Positions 4,568 to 10,554 of a stretch of DNA of 32,502 nucleotides are shown piece after piece. The first letter of the stretch is position 1. Each line of letters opens with the position of its first letter. The stretch lies in IMG/VR virus record IMGVR_UViG_2778261222_000005; one strand, written 5' to 3'. Source of the DNA: a virus (Duplodnaviria; Heunggongvirae; Uroviricota; Caudoviricetes). The translations under genes and the position numbers were made by a program. Below the pieces are notes generated by a model. The model was not told the DNA's origin and ran no database searches. It saw only the letters and a list, made by a program, of their open reading frames with translations.

Positions 4568-4739
4568 TAAGTTATATCCGCCTGGTACTCGTTTCATGCA
4601 CATTGCACATCAGGCAGTGCGTGGTGGGCGGGTGGTAAAAACTGTTGCACCGGCCAGAGATTTTAAATGTGGTTGTGTGGTTGAAATTAATGTCGAGCCT
4701 TATTTCGTAAAAGTCGAAACACTGAAAGCACCGCATTAA
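4548..4739 (+). CDS. hypothetical small protein
   Basis: 63-aa ORF; GGAGG 7-11 nt upstream of the ATG; overlaps the previous ORF end. Confidence 0.5.
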   Translation: MNAKNFNKLYPPGTRFMHIAHQAVRGGRVVKTVAPARDFKCGCVVEINVEPYFVKVETLKAPH

Positions 4740-4770
4740 TTTAATTTGTTTTTAATTGTTATTTAAAACA

Positions 4771-4800
4771 GGCGTAAACCCGCCGGGGCTGGCTTACGCC
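4771..4800 (-). terminator. hairpin terminator serving the convergent minus-strand gene
   Basis: GGCGTAA...TTACGCC inverted repeat with a GC-rich interior. A T-run follows the hairpin only when read on the minus strand (plus-strand A/T-rich 4741-4770); on the plus strand it is followed by TGAATCTGAGG with no U-run. Confidence 0.45.
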
Positions 4801-4879
4801 TGAATCTGAGGAAGTTTATTTATGAATATCGCTAAGCAGAAAAAATTCGCCCGCGAAATTAATCTGACAATCGTTTGTT

Positions 4880-5098
4880 TTAATCGTCTTGCGACCAGTT
4901 CTCAATCGACAGCAGATGTTCATCCAGCGCCGCAGCCAGAACGAACTCCCCACGTTCCTGAAGGCCGTGCTGGAAGTTGCGTAATTCAGAATCCAGGGCG
5001 CTGAGGTTCAGACAGCCATTTTCTGAAAGCTGTTTAACCAGAAAACTCCACGCAGCTTTGTTAGCAGTAATTGCTGCCGCAATTTCATCATCAATCAT
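4880..5098 (-). CDS. hypothetical small acidic protein encoded antisense to the early operon
   Basis: 72-aa ORF; AGGAG 7 nt upstream of its ATG on the minus strand; ends ~80 nt before the hairpin at 4771-4800. Competes with a 60-aa plus-strand ORF (4822..5004) whose C-terminus is Pro/Arg-rich and looks like out-of-frame sequence. Confidence 0.5.
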   Translation of the reverse strand: MIDDEIAAAITANKAAWSFLVKQLSENGCLNLSALDSELRNFQHGLQERGEFVLAAALDEHLLSIENWSQDD

Positions 5099-5186
5099 TT
5101 TTTAACTCCTGATTGGGTATGTTGGGGCAGCGATTATGACAAGCGTTTTGTGGTTATAAGTTGATCAAAAACAATGAGTTACAACC

Positions 5187-5897
5187 ATGAAAGATAAATA
5201 CATTGCCAAAATCAAAAAACTGTTACGCCTTGCCAGAGGAACATCAAGCCCGGAAGAAGCCGCTAACGCTATTGCAAAAGCCCAGGCTTATATGCGCCAG
5301 CATGGTATCAGCGAAAACGACGCGGAATTGTTCGACATTCAGGAAGCTGCCAGCGCGGGTGCGCCGAGTGACGCCAGTACGCCGCCGCTTTATATGCACA
5401 TCCTGTGTGACCTGGTCTGTAAAGCCTTCGGCGTCGAGTGTTACATCTCCGGTGAGTACCGGGCTTCTGGTTCACTCAAACGTCACGTGCGTTTTTATGG
5501 CTCTGACAGCCGCCCGGAAATCGCGGCTTACGCGTTTGATGTGCTTTCCCGTCAGATGATGGCTGAACGCAAGAAATATCAGGATAAACACTGCAAACGT
5601 TGCGGCCCGTCCACGCGGGTGGCCCGTGGCGACCAGTTCTGCGAAGGCTGGGTCTTTGGTGCCCGTGATGTCATTGCGGTGTATGACGTCTCCCCGGAAG
5701 AAAAAAGCCGCCTTGAGCTTTACAGAAAGAACCTGCACAGCACTAAGGGGCTGCGCGACGGGGATATGCGCACAGCTAAAGCGTGCCGGGGTGCAGAGTT
5801 TGCCGCTACAGCCGGTTTTATCGCCGGGAAAAACGCCAGACTGCATCAGGGGGTTAATGGTCAGAGCAACAGACCGCTGGCACTGGGGAGGGTGTAA
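5187..5897 (+). CDS. DUF2786-like protein
   Basis: 236 aa; N-terminus IAKIKKLLRLARGTSSPEEAANAIAKAQAYMRQHGI matches the recalled DUF2786 helical signature; C-terminal half has a Cys cluster (HCKRCG...QFCEGW). Confidence 0.7.
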   Translation: MKDKYIAKIKKLLRLARGTSSPEEAANAIAKAQAYMRQHGISENDAELFDIQEAASAGAPSDASTPPLYMHILCDLVCKAFGVECYISGEYRASGSLKRHVRFYGSDSRPEIAAYAFDVLSRQMMAERKKYQDKHCKRCGPSTRVARGDQFCEGWVFGARDVIAVYDVSPEEKSRLELYRKNLHSTKGLRDGDMRTAKACRGAEFAATAGFIAGKNARLHQGVNGQSNRPLALGRV

Positions 5898-6795: not shown

Positions 6796-7061
6796 GTGAA
6801 TTAAAGTGTCGAATTAATGGCAATCAGATAGAACCGTGTGCGGTACTGGCAAAAGCACTCGAATATGGAAATCCAGCCTTTAAGAGTAAAGGCATATTTA
6901 TCCCGGAACGCGTGAATATAAACACCGGCGAGCCAGGCTTAGACATTGCTCAAATTCACTCCGGCCAATATGTCGGTCGTGGTGTTGCCATGTGTTTTTG
7001 CCCGTTCTGTGGTGAAAGTCTGAAAACATGGAAAAAGGAGGCAACCAGTGAGCGAGATTAA
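6792..7061 (+). CDS. hypothetical Cys-containing small protein
   Basis: GTG at 6792 with GGAGGAG 5 nt upstream, preferred over the track's 6729 start, which would overlap the previous gene. C-terminal CFCPFC motif plus two N-terminal Cys suggest a metal-binding ribbon (inference). Confidence 0.5.
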   Translation: MSELKCRINGNQIEPCAVLAKALEYGNPAFKSKGIFIPERVNINTGEPGLDIAQIHSGQYVGRGVAMCFCPFCGESLKTWKKEATSERD

Positions 7062-7716
7062 CTATCAGGCACTGCGTGAGGTGGCAGAGGCCGCGAAGGG
7101 GGATACGACGTGGCAGAACCTACAGGCTTTTCATGCTGCGGCTACGCCGGAGGTTGTGCAGGCGTTGCTGGATGAAAACGAAAGACTGTGTCGCGAGCTG
7201 ATAGCTCGTAATGGTGAGATTGAAGGGCTTCGGAAGTGGGCAGAAGAACTGGAGGCACGGGAGGTGGCTTTGCCAGTAGCGTCATGCATTGTTGAAGATG
7301 GATGCATGTGTGTTGATGGGTTCAGTGAGTATGTAGGTCACTCGCTACCTGATGGAATGCATGAGCTTTATGCTGCCCCGCCAGCGTCGGTAGTGCCGGA
7401 AGGACTAGTTAAAGCAGTGCGTTTCTATGAACAGGTAAAGTGTGAGAATCCGCCAGTCGAAACCGGAGCATGGAAAGACGCGGTTGACTGGGTGCTCAAC
7501 GAGGCTTGCCAGGCTGTAAATATTGACGGCCAAAGGAGGTGCGTAATGCGTGTAGCGTTTATCGGTTTATTACCATACCCGACTCGTTTTTGGGCTTCTG
7601 CGCTAATTGCAAAGCCGCATGCCCTGATGGCTGACAGCATCATCCCGGCACCAAAGCGCCATACCGGTATTGCTGCTGCACGACGCGAAGCAAAGAAACG
7701 CAGGAGAGCAAAATGA
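7048..7716 (+). CDS. hypothetical protein (possibly ead/Ea22-like)
   Basis: 222-aa ORF; N-terminal coiled-coil-like segment, Cys-rich middle (CIVEDGCMCVDG), basic C-terminus. Family label is a weak recollection. Confidence 0.6.
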   Translation: MSEINYQALREVAEAAKGDTTWQNLQAFHAAATPEVVQALLDENERLCRELIARNGEIEGLRKWAEELEAREVALPVASCIVEDGCMCVDGFSEYVGHSLPDGMHELYAAPPASVVPEGLVKAVRFYEQVKCENPPVETGAWKDAVDWVLNEACQAVNIDGQRRCVMRVAFIGLLPYPTRFWASALIAKPHALMADSIIPAPKRHTGIAAARREAKKRRRAK

Positions 7717-7901
7717 TGAAAAACCGTAAGGCAAGACTGCTGATAGCAAAGCCAGGGCAACTTATCCGTATCTCAAATCGACTTGTTGTTCGCTATAGAT
7801 ATCTTGGTTTTAGGGAGTGGTCCTCTATTCGTTTTTACGGTGTCTGGCGAAACAGAAGCGCGACACAAAACCGCTGGAAGAATCACACTAACGCAAAGTA
7901 A
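7713..7901 (+). CDS. hypothetical small basic protein
   Basis: 62-aa ORF overlapping the upstream stop (ATGA); Arg/Trp-rich, low-complexity, AT-rich codons; may not be translated. Confidence 0.3.
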   Translation: MMKNRKARLLIAKPGQLIRISNRLVVRYRYLGFREWSSIRFYGVWRNRSATQNRWKNHTNAK

Positions 7902-7968
7902 TTAAATAATAACCAATAGCAGACCAAAAAGTATTTTTTGGCCTGCCAAAAGTGATGTTTTGGTCATT

Positions 7969-8247
7969 ATGAAGATTGAACAAATCGGAATGGCAGCTTT
8001 CAGGCAACAGGCTGAAAGCGGTGGCGTGGATGAGTTCGTCGTGCAGCGGTTCGGTGGTGTGTATCACCTCTTCGCTGTGAATCGCCGCGCCGGGGTGTCC
8101 TATTTTCTACAGGAACGCCGTGGCGATTACAAGACGTGGTTGTCTCTTGACCGTGCCGCTGCGTTCTTGTCAGGGATTGGCGTTTCACGTTTTACCGTGC
8201 GTTTTGAGGATAACAAACATGCTGAAAAAGATGATCGGGGCCATTAA
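7969..8247 (+). CDS. hypothetical protein
   Basis: ORF track start 7960 is a TTG; first ATG is at 7969. No clear SD. Overlaps the gemA-like start by 29 nt. Confidence 0.4.
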   Translation: MKIEQIGMAAFRQQAESGGVDEFVVQRFGGVYHLFAVNRRAGVSYFLQERRGDYKTWLSLDRAAAFLSGIGVSRFTVRFEDNKHAEKDDRGH

Positions 8248-8617
8248 AGCTGGTCAGGCGTATCTGGGGTGGGATGATGCCCTTTATCGCCAGACGCTGG
8301 CCCGCCTGACCGGTAAAACCAGCACCACACGCTGCAATCTCGATGAACTGCGCATCATCCGGGAATACATGCACGAACAGGGATTCCCGCGCAAGGCACC
8401 CGCCGGTAAAGGTCGCCGCCCTCGTGTTGCAATGAGCAGAAAATCAGTATTATCCAAAATTGAAGCGTTGCTGGCTGATGCAGGTCGTTCCTGGGCGTAT
8501 GCAGAAGGACTGGCATCTCACATGTATAAGCAACATGTGATCGAATGGCTGACGGATGAACAGCTTTTTGGAGTGATGGTGGCGCTGGTTAAAGATTCAA
8601 GAAGGAGAAATCAATGA
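8219..8617 (+). CDS. gemA: GemA-like protein (Mu gp16 family, DUF1018)
   Basis: ATG at 8219 with GAGGA 8 nt upstream; N-terminus MLKKMIGAIKAGQAYLGWDDALYRQTLARLTGKTSTTRCNLDELRIIREYMHEQGF follows the recalled GemA pattern. Track ORF 8120..8617 is the same frame with an earlier, less likely start. Confidence 0.75.
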   Translation: MLKKMIGAIKAGQAYLGWDDALYRQTLARLTGKTSTTRCNLDELRIIREYMHEQGFPRKAPAGKGRRPRVAMSRKSVLSKIEALLADAGRSWAYAEGLASHMYKQHVIEWLTDEQLFGVMVALVKDSRRRNQ

Positions 8618-9090
8618 TGAAAAAATGGTTGTTTTGTTTAGTAGGGGTTATTTTCTCTTGTTCTGTGCTGGCACAGACAGAGGAACAGGCGCAAAAGGAA
8701 CTGAAACGTTATCAGGATATGAAGCCATTGGCTGAACAGATGCTTCGGGAAAGTGGAAAACTTTATTACGCTATGCCAGAAGCTGCATCGCAATATCAGC
8801 AGGGAAATATTGAAGAGTGGAAGAATATCAAAAAAGGACTAAAACAACTGGATGAACAGGCCAGTAAACTGGGGGACGACCCGCTTGATCCTGTGTATGG
8901 TTCCTGCATAAAAATGAAAAACCAGCTACAGGATTACTGGTCTAACGTTATCAGGGATGACAGGCAGTTTCTGGAGCGTTCAAGAAATCAGTTTAAAGAA
9001 TATCGTATGGATTGTTTTGATTCGTTTGTTTTTGGTAAAGAGCAAATAGAATCAAGAAAAGGCCTGGTTATTCTAGACCTGACTAAATAA
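8614..9090 (+). CDS. secreted or lipoprotein-like protein of unknown function (AT-rich moron)
   Basis: 158 aa; N-terminal signal peptide MMKKWLFCLVGVIFSCSVLA with a possible lipobox-like FSC; gene is visibly more AT-rich than its neighbours (by eye, not computed); followed by a strong intrinsic terminator. Confidence 0.7.
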   Translation: MMKKWLFCLVGVIFSCSVLAQTEEQAQKELKRYQDMKPLAEQMLRESGKLYYAMPEAASQYQQGNIEEWKNIKKGLKQLDEQASKLGDDPLDPVYGSCIKMKNQLQDYWSNVIRDDRQFLERSRNQFKEYRMDCFDSFVFGKEQIESRKGLVILDLTK

Positions 9091-9100
9091 GACTTAGTTT

Positions 9101-9127
9101 AGCCCCTGCCATGCAGGGGCTTTTTTT
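9101..9127 (+). terminator. rho-independent terminator
   Basis: Perfect 9-bp stem AGCCCCTGC / GCAGGGGCT with 3-nt loop, followed by TTTTTTT. Confidence 0.8.
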
Positions 9128-9129
9128 GT

Positions 9130-9165
9130 GGTCTGTACAGGCGATCATGTATGGCTATAATAACA
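9130..9165 (+). promoter_or_regulatory. candidate promoter for the Mor/C-family activator gene
   Basis: Perfect TATAAT hexamer at 9156-9161, between the upstream terminator and the activator start. The -35 is poor (TGTACA-like with 15-bp spacer), so the promoter may be activator-dependent. Confidence 0.35.
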
Positions 9166-9190
9166 GTAAGTTACTACCGGAGACGCCATC

Positions 9191-9658
9191 ATGCAGACCT
9201 TCAGTGAAACAGATCTTCGCGATGCGCAGGCACTGCTGCCCGATTCCGTGCAGCAACTGATTAGCGTGATTGGCTTCCCCGCCCTGACCCGGTTGATTCG
9301 TTCTTTTGGTGGCGTGACGTTAAGCGGTAAAACCGGCGTACACGCCGAACGCACTGGCGGTGTCCATGCCATGTTACATGACGTGCTGACCGAAGACGAA
9401 ATCAACAAACTGATCCGTTTTCTTGGCGGCGCACCGTTTTACATTCCCCGTTGCGATCATGCGTTACGTGCCCTGCGTAACACCCGTTTTATGGCTGATT
9501 TACAGCAGCATGTAAAAGGCGGATGCTCACACCGGCAGGCGCTGGCACTGCTCTGTCCCCGTTACGGCATTTCAGACCGGTACGCATGGCAGCTGATACA
9601 CCGACGACAAAAACAGACTTCGCTGAAAAGCCCCACCCAGGTGGGGCTTTTTGATTAA
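9191..9658 (+). CDS. Mor/C-family transcriptional activator
   Basis: 155 aa; central LGGAPFYIPRC and C-terminal HTH-like region (ALALLCPRYGISDRYAWQLIHRR) resemble the recalled Mu Mor/C signature; GGAG 9 nt upstream. Only one Mor/C-like gene is visible in the window. Confidence 0.8.
   Translation: MQTFSETDLRDAQALLPDSVQQLISVIGFPALTRLIRSFGGVTLSGKTGVHAERTGGVHAMLHDVLTEDEINKLIRFLGGAPFYIPRCDHALRALRNTRFMADLQQHVKGGCSHRQALALLCPRYGISDRYAWQLIHRRQKQTSLKSPTQVGLFD
9627..9652 (+). terminator. intrinsic terminator embedded in the 3' end of the activator gene
   Basis: Stem GCCCCAC / GTGGGGC with short loop followed by TTTTT; overlaps the last codons of the activator gene (stop at 9656-9658). Confidence 0.6.
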
Positions 9659-9685
9659 TGGGCCTCAGAAAAAAGGAGACACGAA

Positions 9686-9973
9686 ATGATGCGTTCTGAC
9701 ACCGATATCGACTATGCAGTACTCGGTGAATATACCGCATTTTCAGACAAGGCCCGGGATGCAGCCCGTCGCCGACATGCTGAAATGTGCAGTTTATCCA
9801 GTTACCTGGCGAAACAGGCCCAAAGCCCGGAATCAGTAACGAATCATGATGAAGTGCTGTCAGCCGTAAACAGAATGATTGACGCAGAACGGGAAATGCG
9901 TAATGCCGTGGAAAGAGCTAACCTGCTGGCGCGGGCATGTTATAAGCCACCATTAAAACTCGCTTCTCTTTAA
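9686..9973 (+). CDS. hypothetical protein
   Basis: 95-aa ORF with AAGGAGA RBS; helical, no family recognised. Confidence 0.55.
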   Translation: MMRSDTDIDYAVLGEYTAFSDKARDAARRRHAEMCSLSSYLAKQAQSPESVTNHDEVLSAVNRMIDAEREMRNAVERANLLARACYKPPLKLASL

Positions 9974-9996
9974 CCCATCCAGATAATCAACCTGCC

Positions 9997-10015
9997 GGGG
10001 GTGCTGAACACCCCC
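9997..10015 (+). promoter_or_regulatory. conserved late-promoter motif, copy 1 (upstream of lysis cassette)
   Basis: GGGGGTGCTGAACACCCCC; core GTGCTGAACACCC (10001-10013) is identical to copies at 18160-18172 and 30076-30088. Flanks form a 7-bp inverted repeat around CTGAA. Downstream CAGTACCC is shared with copy 2. Confidence 0.5.
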
Positions 10016-10161
10016 AGCAGTACCCACCACAGCATACCGTTTACCCTGTCCACTCAGACCACAAGACACCTTAAGGGATAGCGCCCGGCAAAAGTCATTC
10101 TGTGCCTTTGACCGGGTGTTATTTACGGGCCGTCAGTGGCTCAGATTTACAGGAGAAACTC

Positions 10162-10554
10162 ATGTCTGAACCCTTATCAGGCGGCGGAGCTGTGGCAGTC
10201 ACCATCGGTGGTGCCAGTGTGTTTGGCCTTCTCACCAATACCGATTTCGGGGTTGTGGTGGGCGCGTTTGCCGGAGCGCTTTTTGTTGTCACGCAGCAGA
10301 AAGAAATCCCGGTATGGCGAATGGCTATTCATCTGCTCGTCGCGTTTGTGGTTGGCGTTCTGGGGGCTGGCGTGGCTGCGTCACTGATGCAGTGGCTGAC
10401 CCACTACAACGACAAGCCGCTCGATGCATTGTGTGCGGTCGGTGTCTCGGCGTTATCCATCAAGATACTGACCTTTCTTTATCAACAGGAAATTTCATCG
10501 CTGTTCGGCCTGTTTTCCAGACTGCGCGGCGGAGGGGGGGGAAATGGAAAGTAG
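10162..10554 (+). CDS. holin-like membrane protein
   Basis: ATG at 10162 with AGGAG RBS (track start 10102 is an upstream GTG); ~131 aa with several Gly/Ala-rich TM segments; sits just upstream of the endolysin. Confidence 0.55.
   Translation: MSEPLSGGGAVAVTIGGASVFGLLTNTDFGVVVGAFAGALFVVTQQKEIPVWRMAIHLLVAFVVGVLGAGVAASLMQWLTHYNDKPLDALCAVGVSALSIKILTFLYQQEISSLFGLFSRLRGGGGGNGK

Follow-up and report, generated by a model that had tools for sequence, protein, structure and literature searches.

The stretch analysed here, a 32,502-nucleotide (nt) DNA from IMG/VR virus record IMGVR_UViG_2778261222_000005 (Caudoviricetes; the whole stretch is hereafter called the window), carries a 158-codon open reading frame (ORF) between its gemA gene and its Mor/C-family activator gene. 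We call this ORF gene X (8614..9090, + strand, ATG start). Gene X appears to be an accessory cassette occupying a hot spot of plasticity in a Mu-like prophage, and the modestly novel twist is that this hot spot seems to be reserved for exported proteins. Our best explanation, in which X is a gemA-coupled accessory gene and an exchanged cassette that encodes an exported four-helix-bundle protection factor, has as a whole a probability of roughly 0.55. Its anatomical and evolutionary parts are very likely correct; the function, that of a periplasmic exclusion or protection factor, is suggested by analogy and is tentative.

An exchangeable slot behind gemA

The region is 99% identical to a prophage of Escherichia coli O127:H6 E2348/69, in which the counterpart of X (WP_000976762.1, a hypothetical protein, 99% identical) is flanked by genes annotated as ‘gp16 family protein’ and ‘Mor transcription activator family protein’. 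Homologous loci encode a Mu-type transposase, a B-like ATPase, DUF3164, GemA and Mor, as well as holins with a GH108 endolysin, DUF1804 and a Mu portal, and this gene content identifies the phage as a Mu-like transposable phage. Among 50,697 phage records, megablast returned no close DNA-level relative and tblastn no match to the X protein; distant blastn matches showed just gemA-level similarity to Klebsiella and Pseudomonas Mu-like phages. A literature search on the E2348/69 Mu-like prophage found no paper in the library searched.

The gemA-to-activator backbone is present in 58 of 5,426 complete E. coli genomes. Slots were classed by the length of the segment that runs from the start of gemA through the end of the activator, with one representative inspected per non-A1 class, and because several records are clonal the following counts describe the collection rather than independent events:

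Class A1: the 158-amino-acid (aa) gene, at least 98% identical; 12 records; representatives, the window and E2348/69
Class A2: a 159-aa allele, 67% amino-acid identity; 11 records; representative, 08-00022
Class B: an unrelated 112-aa ORF, phrog_5882; 11 records; representative, Ec55
Class C: an unrelated 174-aa IalB-like ORF related to phrog_19473; 5 records; representative, M8
Empty: no cargo; 19 records; representative, tcmA_3

The X family is found in 23 of these 58 genomes and is missing from 35 (19 with an empty slot and 16 with another cargo), so X is not a core component of this phage group. GemA of the empty-slot class carries a slightly different basic tail. A repeat search found no direct repeats bracketing the cargo, and transposon-type insertion of the cargo was rejected for this reason.

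Gene X also differs from its surroundings in composition. Its GC content is 40.0%, and 39.6% at third codon positions (GC3), against 54.3% for the window. Segments of 477 bp taken across the 32.5 kb average 54.4% GC with a standard deviation of 4.6%; the lowest (39.8%) starts at 8584 and overlaps the gene, and just 0.04% of segments are as low as the ORF. Gene X is essentially the most AT-rich 477-bp stretch in the window. Since GC3 is 52–56% in the genes adjoining X, its AT-richness extends to synonymous sites. In each lineage, X members and alternative cargos have less GC than the DNA on either side (35–44% vs 42–60%), and the persistence of this trait in X homologues just 24–45% identical marks low GC as a stable family character rather than a sign of recent import.

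The ratio of nonsynonymous to synonymous divergence (dN/dS) of X against five homologous loci is 0.09–0.18, which indicates purifying selection on a real protein. The dS of X is 0.9–2.7 and that of the flanking gemA and activator genes 0.10–0.40; with X so far above its flanks, old alleles have been recombined into much younger backbones. Frameshifted or truncated copies in some E. coli genomes (P0010, 106 aa; P0012, 66 aa) indicate that X decays in some lineages.

Direct evidence for recombination junctions comes from three loci (L009–L011) in which the slot holds X followed by a second, unrelated 168-aa gene as a tandem cargo. In L009 (5480–5620), a ∼75-nt degenerate remnant of the gemA 3′ end with its ribosome-binding site precedes the second gene, and that gene opens with the signal peptide of the window's X (MMKKWLFCLVGVI), sharing ∼40 identical nucleotides. 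The shared codons place one signal peptide on two unrelated mature domains. We propose that at least three unrelated exported-protein cassettes are swapped at the slot among related prophages by homologous recombination. It would use the conserved sequences that border the slot, namely the 3′ end of gemA and the terminator/promoter module, and in some cases the signal-peptide codons as well.

The elements at the junction are as follows:

8219..8617, + strand: gemA (gp16 family); PF06252 GemA 1.5e-18, phrog_286 5.5e-37; annotated in E2348/69 as ‘gp16 family protein’
8602..8607, + strand: Shine-Dalgarno sequence AAGGAG within gemA codons, 6 nt before the ATG at 8614 and 9 nt before the ATG at 8617
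8614..9090, + strand: cargo gene X, precursor of a predicted exported four-helix-bundle protein, 158 aa
9101..9128, + strand: intrinsic terminator, a 9-bp GC-rich stem (9101–9121) plus a U7 run; backbone element of the early/gemA unit
9134..9161, + strand: sigma-70-like promoter, TGTACA-16-TATAAT, 10/12 matches, ahead of the activator gene
9191..9658, + strand: Mor/C-family activator gene, 155 aa; PF08765 29 bits (cut-off 24.9), phrog_836 ‘late transcriptional activator’ 2e-42
9625..9657, + strand: second terminator-like hairpin with a U-run, inside the last codons of the activator gene; −20.6 to −21.2 kcal/mol, z = −2.9

Upstream of the slot, the last codons of the conserved gemA contain the ribosome-binding site of X, and this Shine-Dalgarno/gemA junction is retained in A-type and B-type cassettes. 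The X start overlaps the gemA stop by 4 nt (ATGA, 8614–8617). A consensus scan, which weak or non-sigma-70 promoters could escape, found no sigma-70-like promoter site from 7911 to 9133. X is the final cistron before the backbone terminator and has the same orientation as gemA.

The terminator folds at −22.7 kcal/mol (z = −4.5), and none of 200 shuffled sequences folds equally well. The raw count of promoter-like sites is at chance level (2 found vs 2.6 expected); both hexamers of the promoter are kept in a divergent Salmonella relative (L014) despite a diverged spacer and flanks, and the promoter is invariant among the E. coli, Yersinia, and Salmonella loci. A GC-rich stem and T-run precedes it in 7/7 aligned enterobacterial relatives, the hairpin sequence varying by lineage, and the empty-slot prophage tcmA_3 has a near-identical terminator and an identical promoter directly 3′ of gemA. 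Because empty-slot relatives keep both, terminator and promoter belong to the phage backbone and not to the cargo, which is essentially the ORF alone (∼8614–9098).

Six-frame phmmer searches of the window found no second Mor/C ORF, whether the query was its own activator, Mu Mor, or Mu C. Promoter 9134–9161 ahead of the activator gene and hairpin 9625–9657 at its end make it a promoter–gene–terminator unit of its own. That hairpin has sub-threshold terminator-like Rfam matches only, and an Rfam scan of 7700–10200 gave no match at the X locus. The activator of this lineage lies outside the early operon; that of a Klebsiella phage described below lies within it. The sole late activator sits behind a near-consensus promoter, which would have to be kept silent in a lysogen. 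A single Mor/C activator directly upstream of lysis genes has been described for SuMu and Mannheimia Mu-like phages (PMC4553209).

The initial annotation of this DNA had already proposed the 158-aa ORF at 8614..9090, judged it AT-rich by eye, and placed behind it a strong intrinsic terminator, a separate promoter-like TATAAT, and the only Mor/C-family gene. The ORF listing, the GC calculation (third codon positions included), the folding energy, the conserved hexamers, and the six-frame search support each of these points. Its label for the gene, a moron of foreign-looking cargo, fits in part. Presence or absence between conserved genes and atypical GC agree with a moron, and X is indeed AT-rich and accessory; on the other side, X lacks its own promoter and terminator, and the homologues examined all lie in Mu-like prophages beside gemA or mor. 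As a gene that overlaps the stop of gemA and lacks a promoter, X is not a classic moron but the last cistron of the gemA unit.

The slot lies at the position of Mu mor, as the same annotation had said. In Mu, the gem operon and early/middle junction (gemA-mor, then the terminator and Pm, then gp18-gp19-gp20-C) shows the same position, the same 4-nt gemA overlap, and the same order of terminator and promoter as X. Mu also has non-essential envelope proteins at this junction, gp19 with four transmembrane (TM) segments and gp20 with one. Unlike Mor, X is not a Mor/C protein (neither Pfam, for the family, nor phmmer, with Mu Mor and Mu C, gave a match), and whereas Mu Pm is Mor-dependent, the promoter here is sigma-70-like and the activator single. 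Two statements of the annotation need correction. The gene after mor in Mu is not C, as gp18, gp19, and gp20 intervene, and the single activator does not reflect a cascade rearranged by the cargo, the layout being identical with or without it.

All contexts of X homologues examined are Mu-like prophages of Enterobacterales, with X beside gemA or the activator. The order gemA, X, terminator–promoter, activator is found in E. coli, Yersinia, and both Salmonella lineages. In Xenorhabdus the order is gemA, an HI_1489-like gene, Mor, X, and a C-like activator (phrog_836), and a metagenomic contig (L013) has gemA, Mor, X, and an endolysin gene. Klebsiella phage ST405-OXA48phi1.1 (MK388859) probably shares the latter arrangement: at the mor position (MK388859.1 ∼8304–8774; L019 1805–2275), between the GemA gene and a gene for a hypothetical exported protein, it has an unannotated ORF of the Mor/C family with 40% identity to the activator of the window. 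The membership of this X-like protein is tentative because its hhalign comparison with the family is weak (E = 0.025 for the pair). We rejected the idea that X replaced mor, since Mor, X, and a C-like activator follow one another in the Xenorhabdus prophage. X is a long-standing accessory family of transposable phages and not DNA foreign to this phage group, its contexts being Mu-like throughout.

The other cargos share its theme: each begins with a signal peptide, and its mature part contains exactly two cysteines. The signal peptide of the B cargo reads MKKLLLLILTLCFTGISHA, followed by SD; this cargo also shows the two cysteines and a weak Sel1-like signal. A B homologue (38% identical) that shares these two cysteines and likewise has a signal peptide lies directly after gemA in Mannheimia phage vB_MhM_3927AP2, whose record brackets it with annotated terminators and annotates a promoter after it. 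This occurrence in a Mannheimia Mu-like phage indicates that the exported-cargo theme is old.

Two known arrangements come close to this slot. Mu-like phages have regions of genomic plasticity with single accessory ORFs, moron-like and without an assigned function, between core genes, and these ORFs are often low in GC and present or absent in near-identical genomes, with exchange proposed via short conserved flanks (Cazares et al. 2014, PMC4378225). Fixed position, low GC, presence/absence, and proposed flank recombination are as for X in the passages on these regions; the phages there are of the Pseudomonas D3112/DMS3 type, the proteins are unrelated, and those passages report neither a secreted-protein theme nor a shared signal-peptide junction. 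Lambdoid morons (lom, bor) likewise are extra genes between conserved genes, with atypical composition and an envelope-targeted product, but they have their own promoter and terminator, whereas X is coupled to gemA and its flanking signals are backbone.

The predicted exported protein and its family

The features of X that bear on its product are the following:

8614..8673, + strand: signal-peptide codons (residues 1–20, MMKKWLFCLVGVIFSCSVLA); predicted signal peptidase I cut after Ala20
8905..8907, + strand: Cys98 codon, invariant in the family alignment
9013..9015, + strand: Cys134 codon, invariant; presumed disulfide partner of Cys98 on the adjacent antiparallel helix

The N-terminus reads MMKKWLFCLVGVIFSCSVLA followed by QTEE, with KK at residues 3–4, a hydrophobic core of Kyte-Doolittle value 2.74 over 10 residues (6–15), and V-L-A at residues 18–20; no further hydrophobic segment was found in X after the signal peptide. 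An A-x-A site followed by Q is present in 9/10 close homologues and S-x-S in one. Read from these n-, h-, and c-regions and the cleavage site, X is most likely a Sec-exported protein cleaved by signal peptidase I. The signal peptide and the envelope-targeted accessory protein of the initial annotation agree with this prediction, the accessory character with the absence or replacement of X in close prophages. Its possible lipobox is a mixed case. The VIFSC of this allele fits a permissive PROSITE-style lipobox but not the strict L-[AS]-[GA]-C form, and Cys16 is Phe in two close homologues (P0003 and P0005) and absent from distant ones. Since Cys16 is unconserved and the A-x-A/Q site is kept in 9/10, the family appears to be cleaved by signal peptidase I and not lipidated, and we rejected the lipoprotein reading for it.

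The X family is tiny. Among 5.8 billion proteins, 10 clusters match X directly, all 155–160 aa long and from E. coli, E. albertii, Salmonella, and Yersinia. Searching 1.84 billion representatives with a profile brings in distant members, at 24–45% identity, in Salmonella, Edwardsiella, Xenorhabdus, and Yersinia, and four columns (G64, C98, W109, and C134) are invariant down to 24% identity in a 14-sequence alignment (A4). A scan of GTDB species representatives with the family alignment found no locus. Three distant members, P0019, P0018, and P0015, match phrog_29261 (1.4e-19, 4.7e-8, and 0.0048), and P0018 also matches phrog_30411 (9e-10); these two phage families without known function are linked to X only through the profile search for distant members.

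An AlphaFold model of X built from 10 sequences (pLDDT 80.7, pTM 0.71) is all-helical, with a signal-peptide helix and a four-helix bundle whose last two helices span residues 96–114 and 117–156. In this model C98 stands at the start of helix 3, level with C134 on the antiparallel helix 4, so that the two probably form a disulfide. Apart from these two invariant cysteines, the predicted bundle is a generic fold. Periplasmic four-helix-bundle sensor domains (QseE, Tar/Tsr, PcaY, TorS, and NarQ) resemble it at 2–13% identity; such a match is typical for any up-down helical bundle and comes partly from the signal-peptide helix. Unlike sensors of the 4HB_MCP type, X has neither a second transmembrane segment nor a cytoplasmic domain. 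The lysozyme inhibitor families Ivy, MliC/PliC, PliG, and LprI/DUF1311 gave no Pfam match for X at E ≤ 0.1, and the NCBIfam model ‘C-type lysozyme inhibitor’ scored 12.4 bits (cut-off 168), mainly on the signal peptide and N-terminus (residues 2–46).

Expression and possible functions of gene X

We propose that X is cotranscribed with gemA as the last cistron of the gemA unit, which would end at the backbone terminator 9101–9128, and that its translation would restart at the ATGA stop/start overlap from the ribosome-binding site inside gemA. From gene order, X should be expressed whenever gemA is, early in lytic growth from the early promoter. The Mu GenBank record annotates a semi-early promoter before gemA, which makes a low level of X expression in lysogens plausible, and this we consider possible. 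Just upstream of orf92-gemA-X lies a promoter-like site, ATCACA-17-AATAAT (7882–7910, 9/12 matches), which may be the counterpart of that Mu promoter; it is followed by an A/T-rich hairpin (7919–7946, −12 kcal/mol, z = −3.4).

The product would then be exported by Sec, with the signal peptide cut after Ala20, and the 137-residue mature protein would fold in the periplasm as a four-helix bundle, probably pinned by the Cys98–Cys134 disulfide. There, by analogy, it may bind an envelope or periplasmic target and shield the infected or lysogenic cell from outside attack, such as phage superinfection or a toxin that degrades the cell wall. T4 Sp (spackle) and Imm and T5 Llp are small, early, exported envelope proteins that block a secondary attack, and they provide the functional analogy behind this suggestion; X shows no detected relationship to them in sequence or fold, as tblastn against the 50,697 phage records and a BFVD search gave X no significant match at all, the reference sequences not having been compared directly. 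It was in variable slots of phage genomes that anti-CRISPRs and many exclusion systems first came to light. An arms-race periplasmic accessory factor is the best fit to the predicted export, the disulfide-stabilised scaffold, the rapid turnover of unrelated exported cassettes, and the dispensability of X. The predicted export of every cargo seen at the slot, each with two cysteines, and the reuse of one signal peptide point to selection for delivery to the periplasm, early in infection or in the lysogen.

Several points weigh against this explanation. X is unmatched in Pfam, PHROGs (E ≤ 0.1), PADLOC (PADLOC-DB, E ≤ 1 for X, the A2 allele, and the B cargo), and NCBIfam, and has no assigned function. 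A BFVD fold search returned nothing below E = 0.1, and a sequence profile search of the PDB gave designed helical bundles only. Export, signal-peptide cleavage, and the disulfide are predictions, and with its permissive lipobox this allele could be an outer-membrane lipoprotein rather than a soluble protein. The timing of expression is read from gene order, and the exclusion role from analogy and the arms-race-like turnover of the slot. The slot is empty in a third of related prophages, which makes any benefit of X conditional.

The main rival, in our view unlikely, is a host-benefit factor: a classic moron or lysogenic-conversion gene, recently acquired as a foreign unit and expressed in the repressed prophage, that alters the envelope in favour of the host, for instance by making the host immune to a bacteriocin that acts in the periplasm or to a cell-wall hydrolase of type VI secretion, or by conferring serum or stress resistance. 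A GC content 14 points below that of the phage, third codon positions included, presence or absence among the closest relatives, and a predicted exported product would all suit such a gene. The Mu gem gene has been reported active even in lysogens, and the site at 7882–7910 could act as a Mu-type semi-early promoter for orf92-gemA-X. Against this reading, X has no promoter or terminator of its own, the terminator behind it is backbone, its family sits in Mu-like prophages in all contexts examined, and members at 24–45% identity are still AT-rich (35–44% GC), as expected of a long-standing trait and not of a recent import.

An accessory role in lysis is less likely again. Periplasmic X might tune holin and endolysin (antiholin-like, as T4 RI) or guard the wall from premature lysis, and its surroundings invite the idea: X is invariably found immediately ahead of the late activator or the lysis cassette, a homologue directly precedes the endolysin gene in contig L013 and Klebsiella phage MK388859, Mu places the non-essential membrane proteins gp19 and gp20 at the same junction, and X, with a periplasmic location, would be expressed ahead of the late genes. 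The lysis genes themselves argue otherwise. The family occurs with five endolysin types (GH108, M15, GH19, GH24 lysozyme, and Amidase_2) and varied holins, with no co-variation, and the empty-slot prophage tcmA_3 has the very holins of E2348/69 (WP_001372993.1 and WP_000445983.1), so X is dispensable for that lysis system. On these grounds we rejected an endolysin-specific role, and a dedicated lysis role is unlikely.

A link to the adsorption apparatus of the phage itself, through receptor masking or self-exclusion, which would spare progeny and homoimmune phages a waste of DNA as T5 Llp does, is very improbable. It would account for an early gene with a predicted exported product and fast turnover of the slot. 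The tail-fibre module of E2348/69 is nevertheless 99.6–99.7% identical to those of the empty-slot prophages tcmA_3 and E423, and another X-carrying prophage has a different fibre variant; near-identical fibres with and without X leave X unlinked to receptor specificity, and we rejected a coupling between X and the tail fibre. Among the proteins encoded in the window are gp46-like and J/gp47-like baseplate proteins, typical of a contractile tail. The receptor of Mu is lipopolysaccharide, and if the same holds here a soluble periplasmic protein could not mask it.

A chance ORF or a decaying, functionless remnant, which the broken copies P0010 and P0012 and the often empty slot might suggest, is effectively refuted by a dN/dS of 0.09–0.18 with saturated dS, a length of 155–160 aa conserved across genera, four invariant residues at 24% identity, and a confident structure model.

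The preferred explanation, a gemA-coupled exported protection factor, can be extended with considerable doubt. We conjecture that transposable phages, from those of Enterobacterales to those of Pasteurellaceae, have long kept the post-gemA (or post-mor) position as a locus dedicated to periplasmic effectors, at which small, unrelated, Sec-exported, disulfide-bonded proteins are swapped. These would make up a hitherto undescribed set of envelope weapons or shields. Its cargos may be of four-helix-bundle, Sel1-like, and IalB-like kinds, and its flanks may include the shared signal-peptide module. If so, possible targets would be the entry of phage DNA, blocked by the effector, incoming cell-wall hydrolases, which it would inhibit, or periplasmic sensors, for which it would serve as a decoy. 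Among the carriers are the prototype enteropathogenic strain E2348/69 and numerous isolates from animals and food. The cargo proteins are small and easily expressed, so that roles in exclusion, bacteriocin immunity, and envelope signalling are directly testable; should none of these emerge, X would stay a further hypothetical accessory gene in a prophage of the Mu type.

Other features of the window and of the E2348/69 prophage

The second most AT-rich stretch of the window, with a minimum of 41.5% GC, lies at 4629–5280. Within it a minus-strand ORF (4880..5098, 72 aa) corresponds to hypothetical protein WP_000564495.1 of E2348/69 and is apparently the sole annotated minus-strand gene of the early region shown; it is a candidate for a more classic moron than X. 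The Ead/Ea22-like ORF at 7048–7716 is mosaic, its N-terminal part matching phrog_250/368, its middle phrog_660/26213, and its C-terminal part phrog_13831, and its length differs among relatives.

Downstream of the activator gene, a GC-rich hairpin between the orf95 and holin genes (9992–10020, −21 kcal/mol, z = −3.6) has no + strand U-run, and the scan marks it as a minus-strand terminator. The right end of the E2348/69 prophage adjoins a truncated eutC (NC_011601.1 ∼2751460–2752134; L027 5461–6135), which indicates that the Mu-like phage inserted in the ethanolamine-utilisation operon. Near the prophage, ISEc13 additionally splits eutA in this strain.

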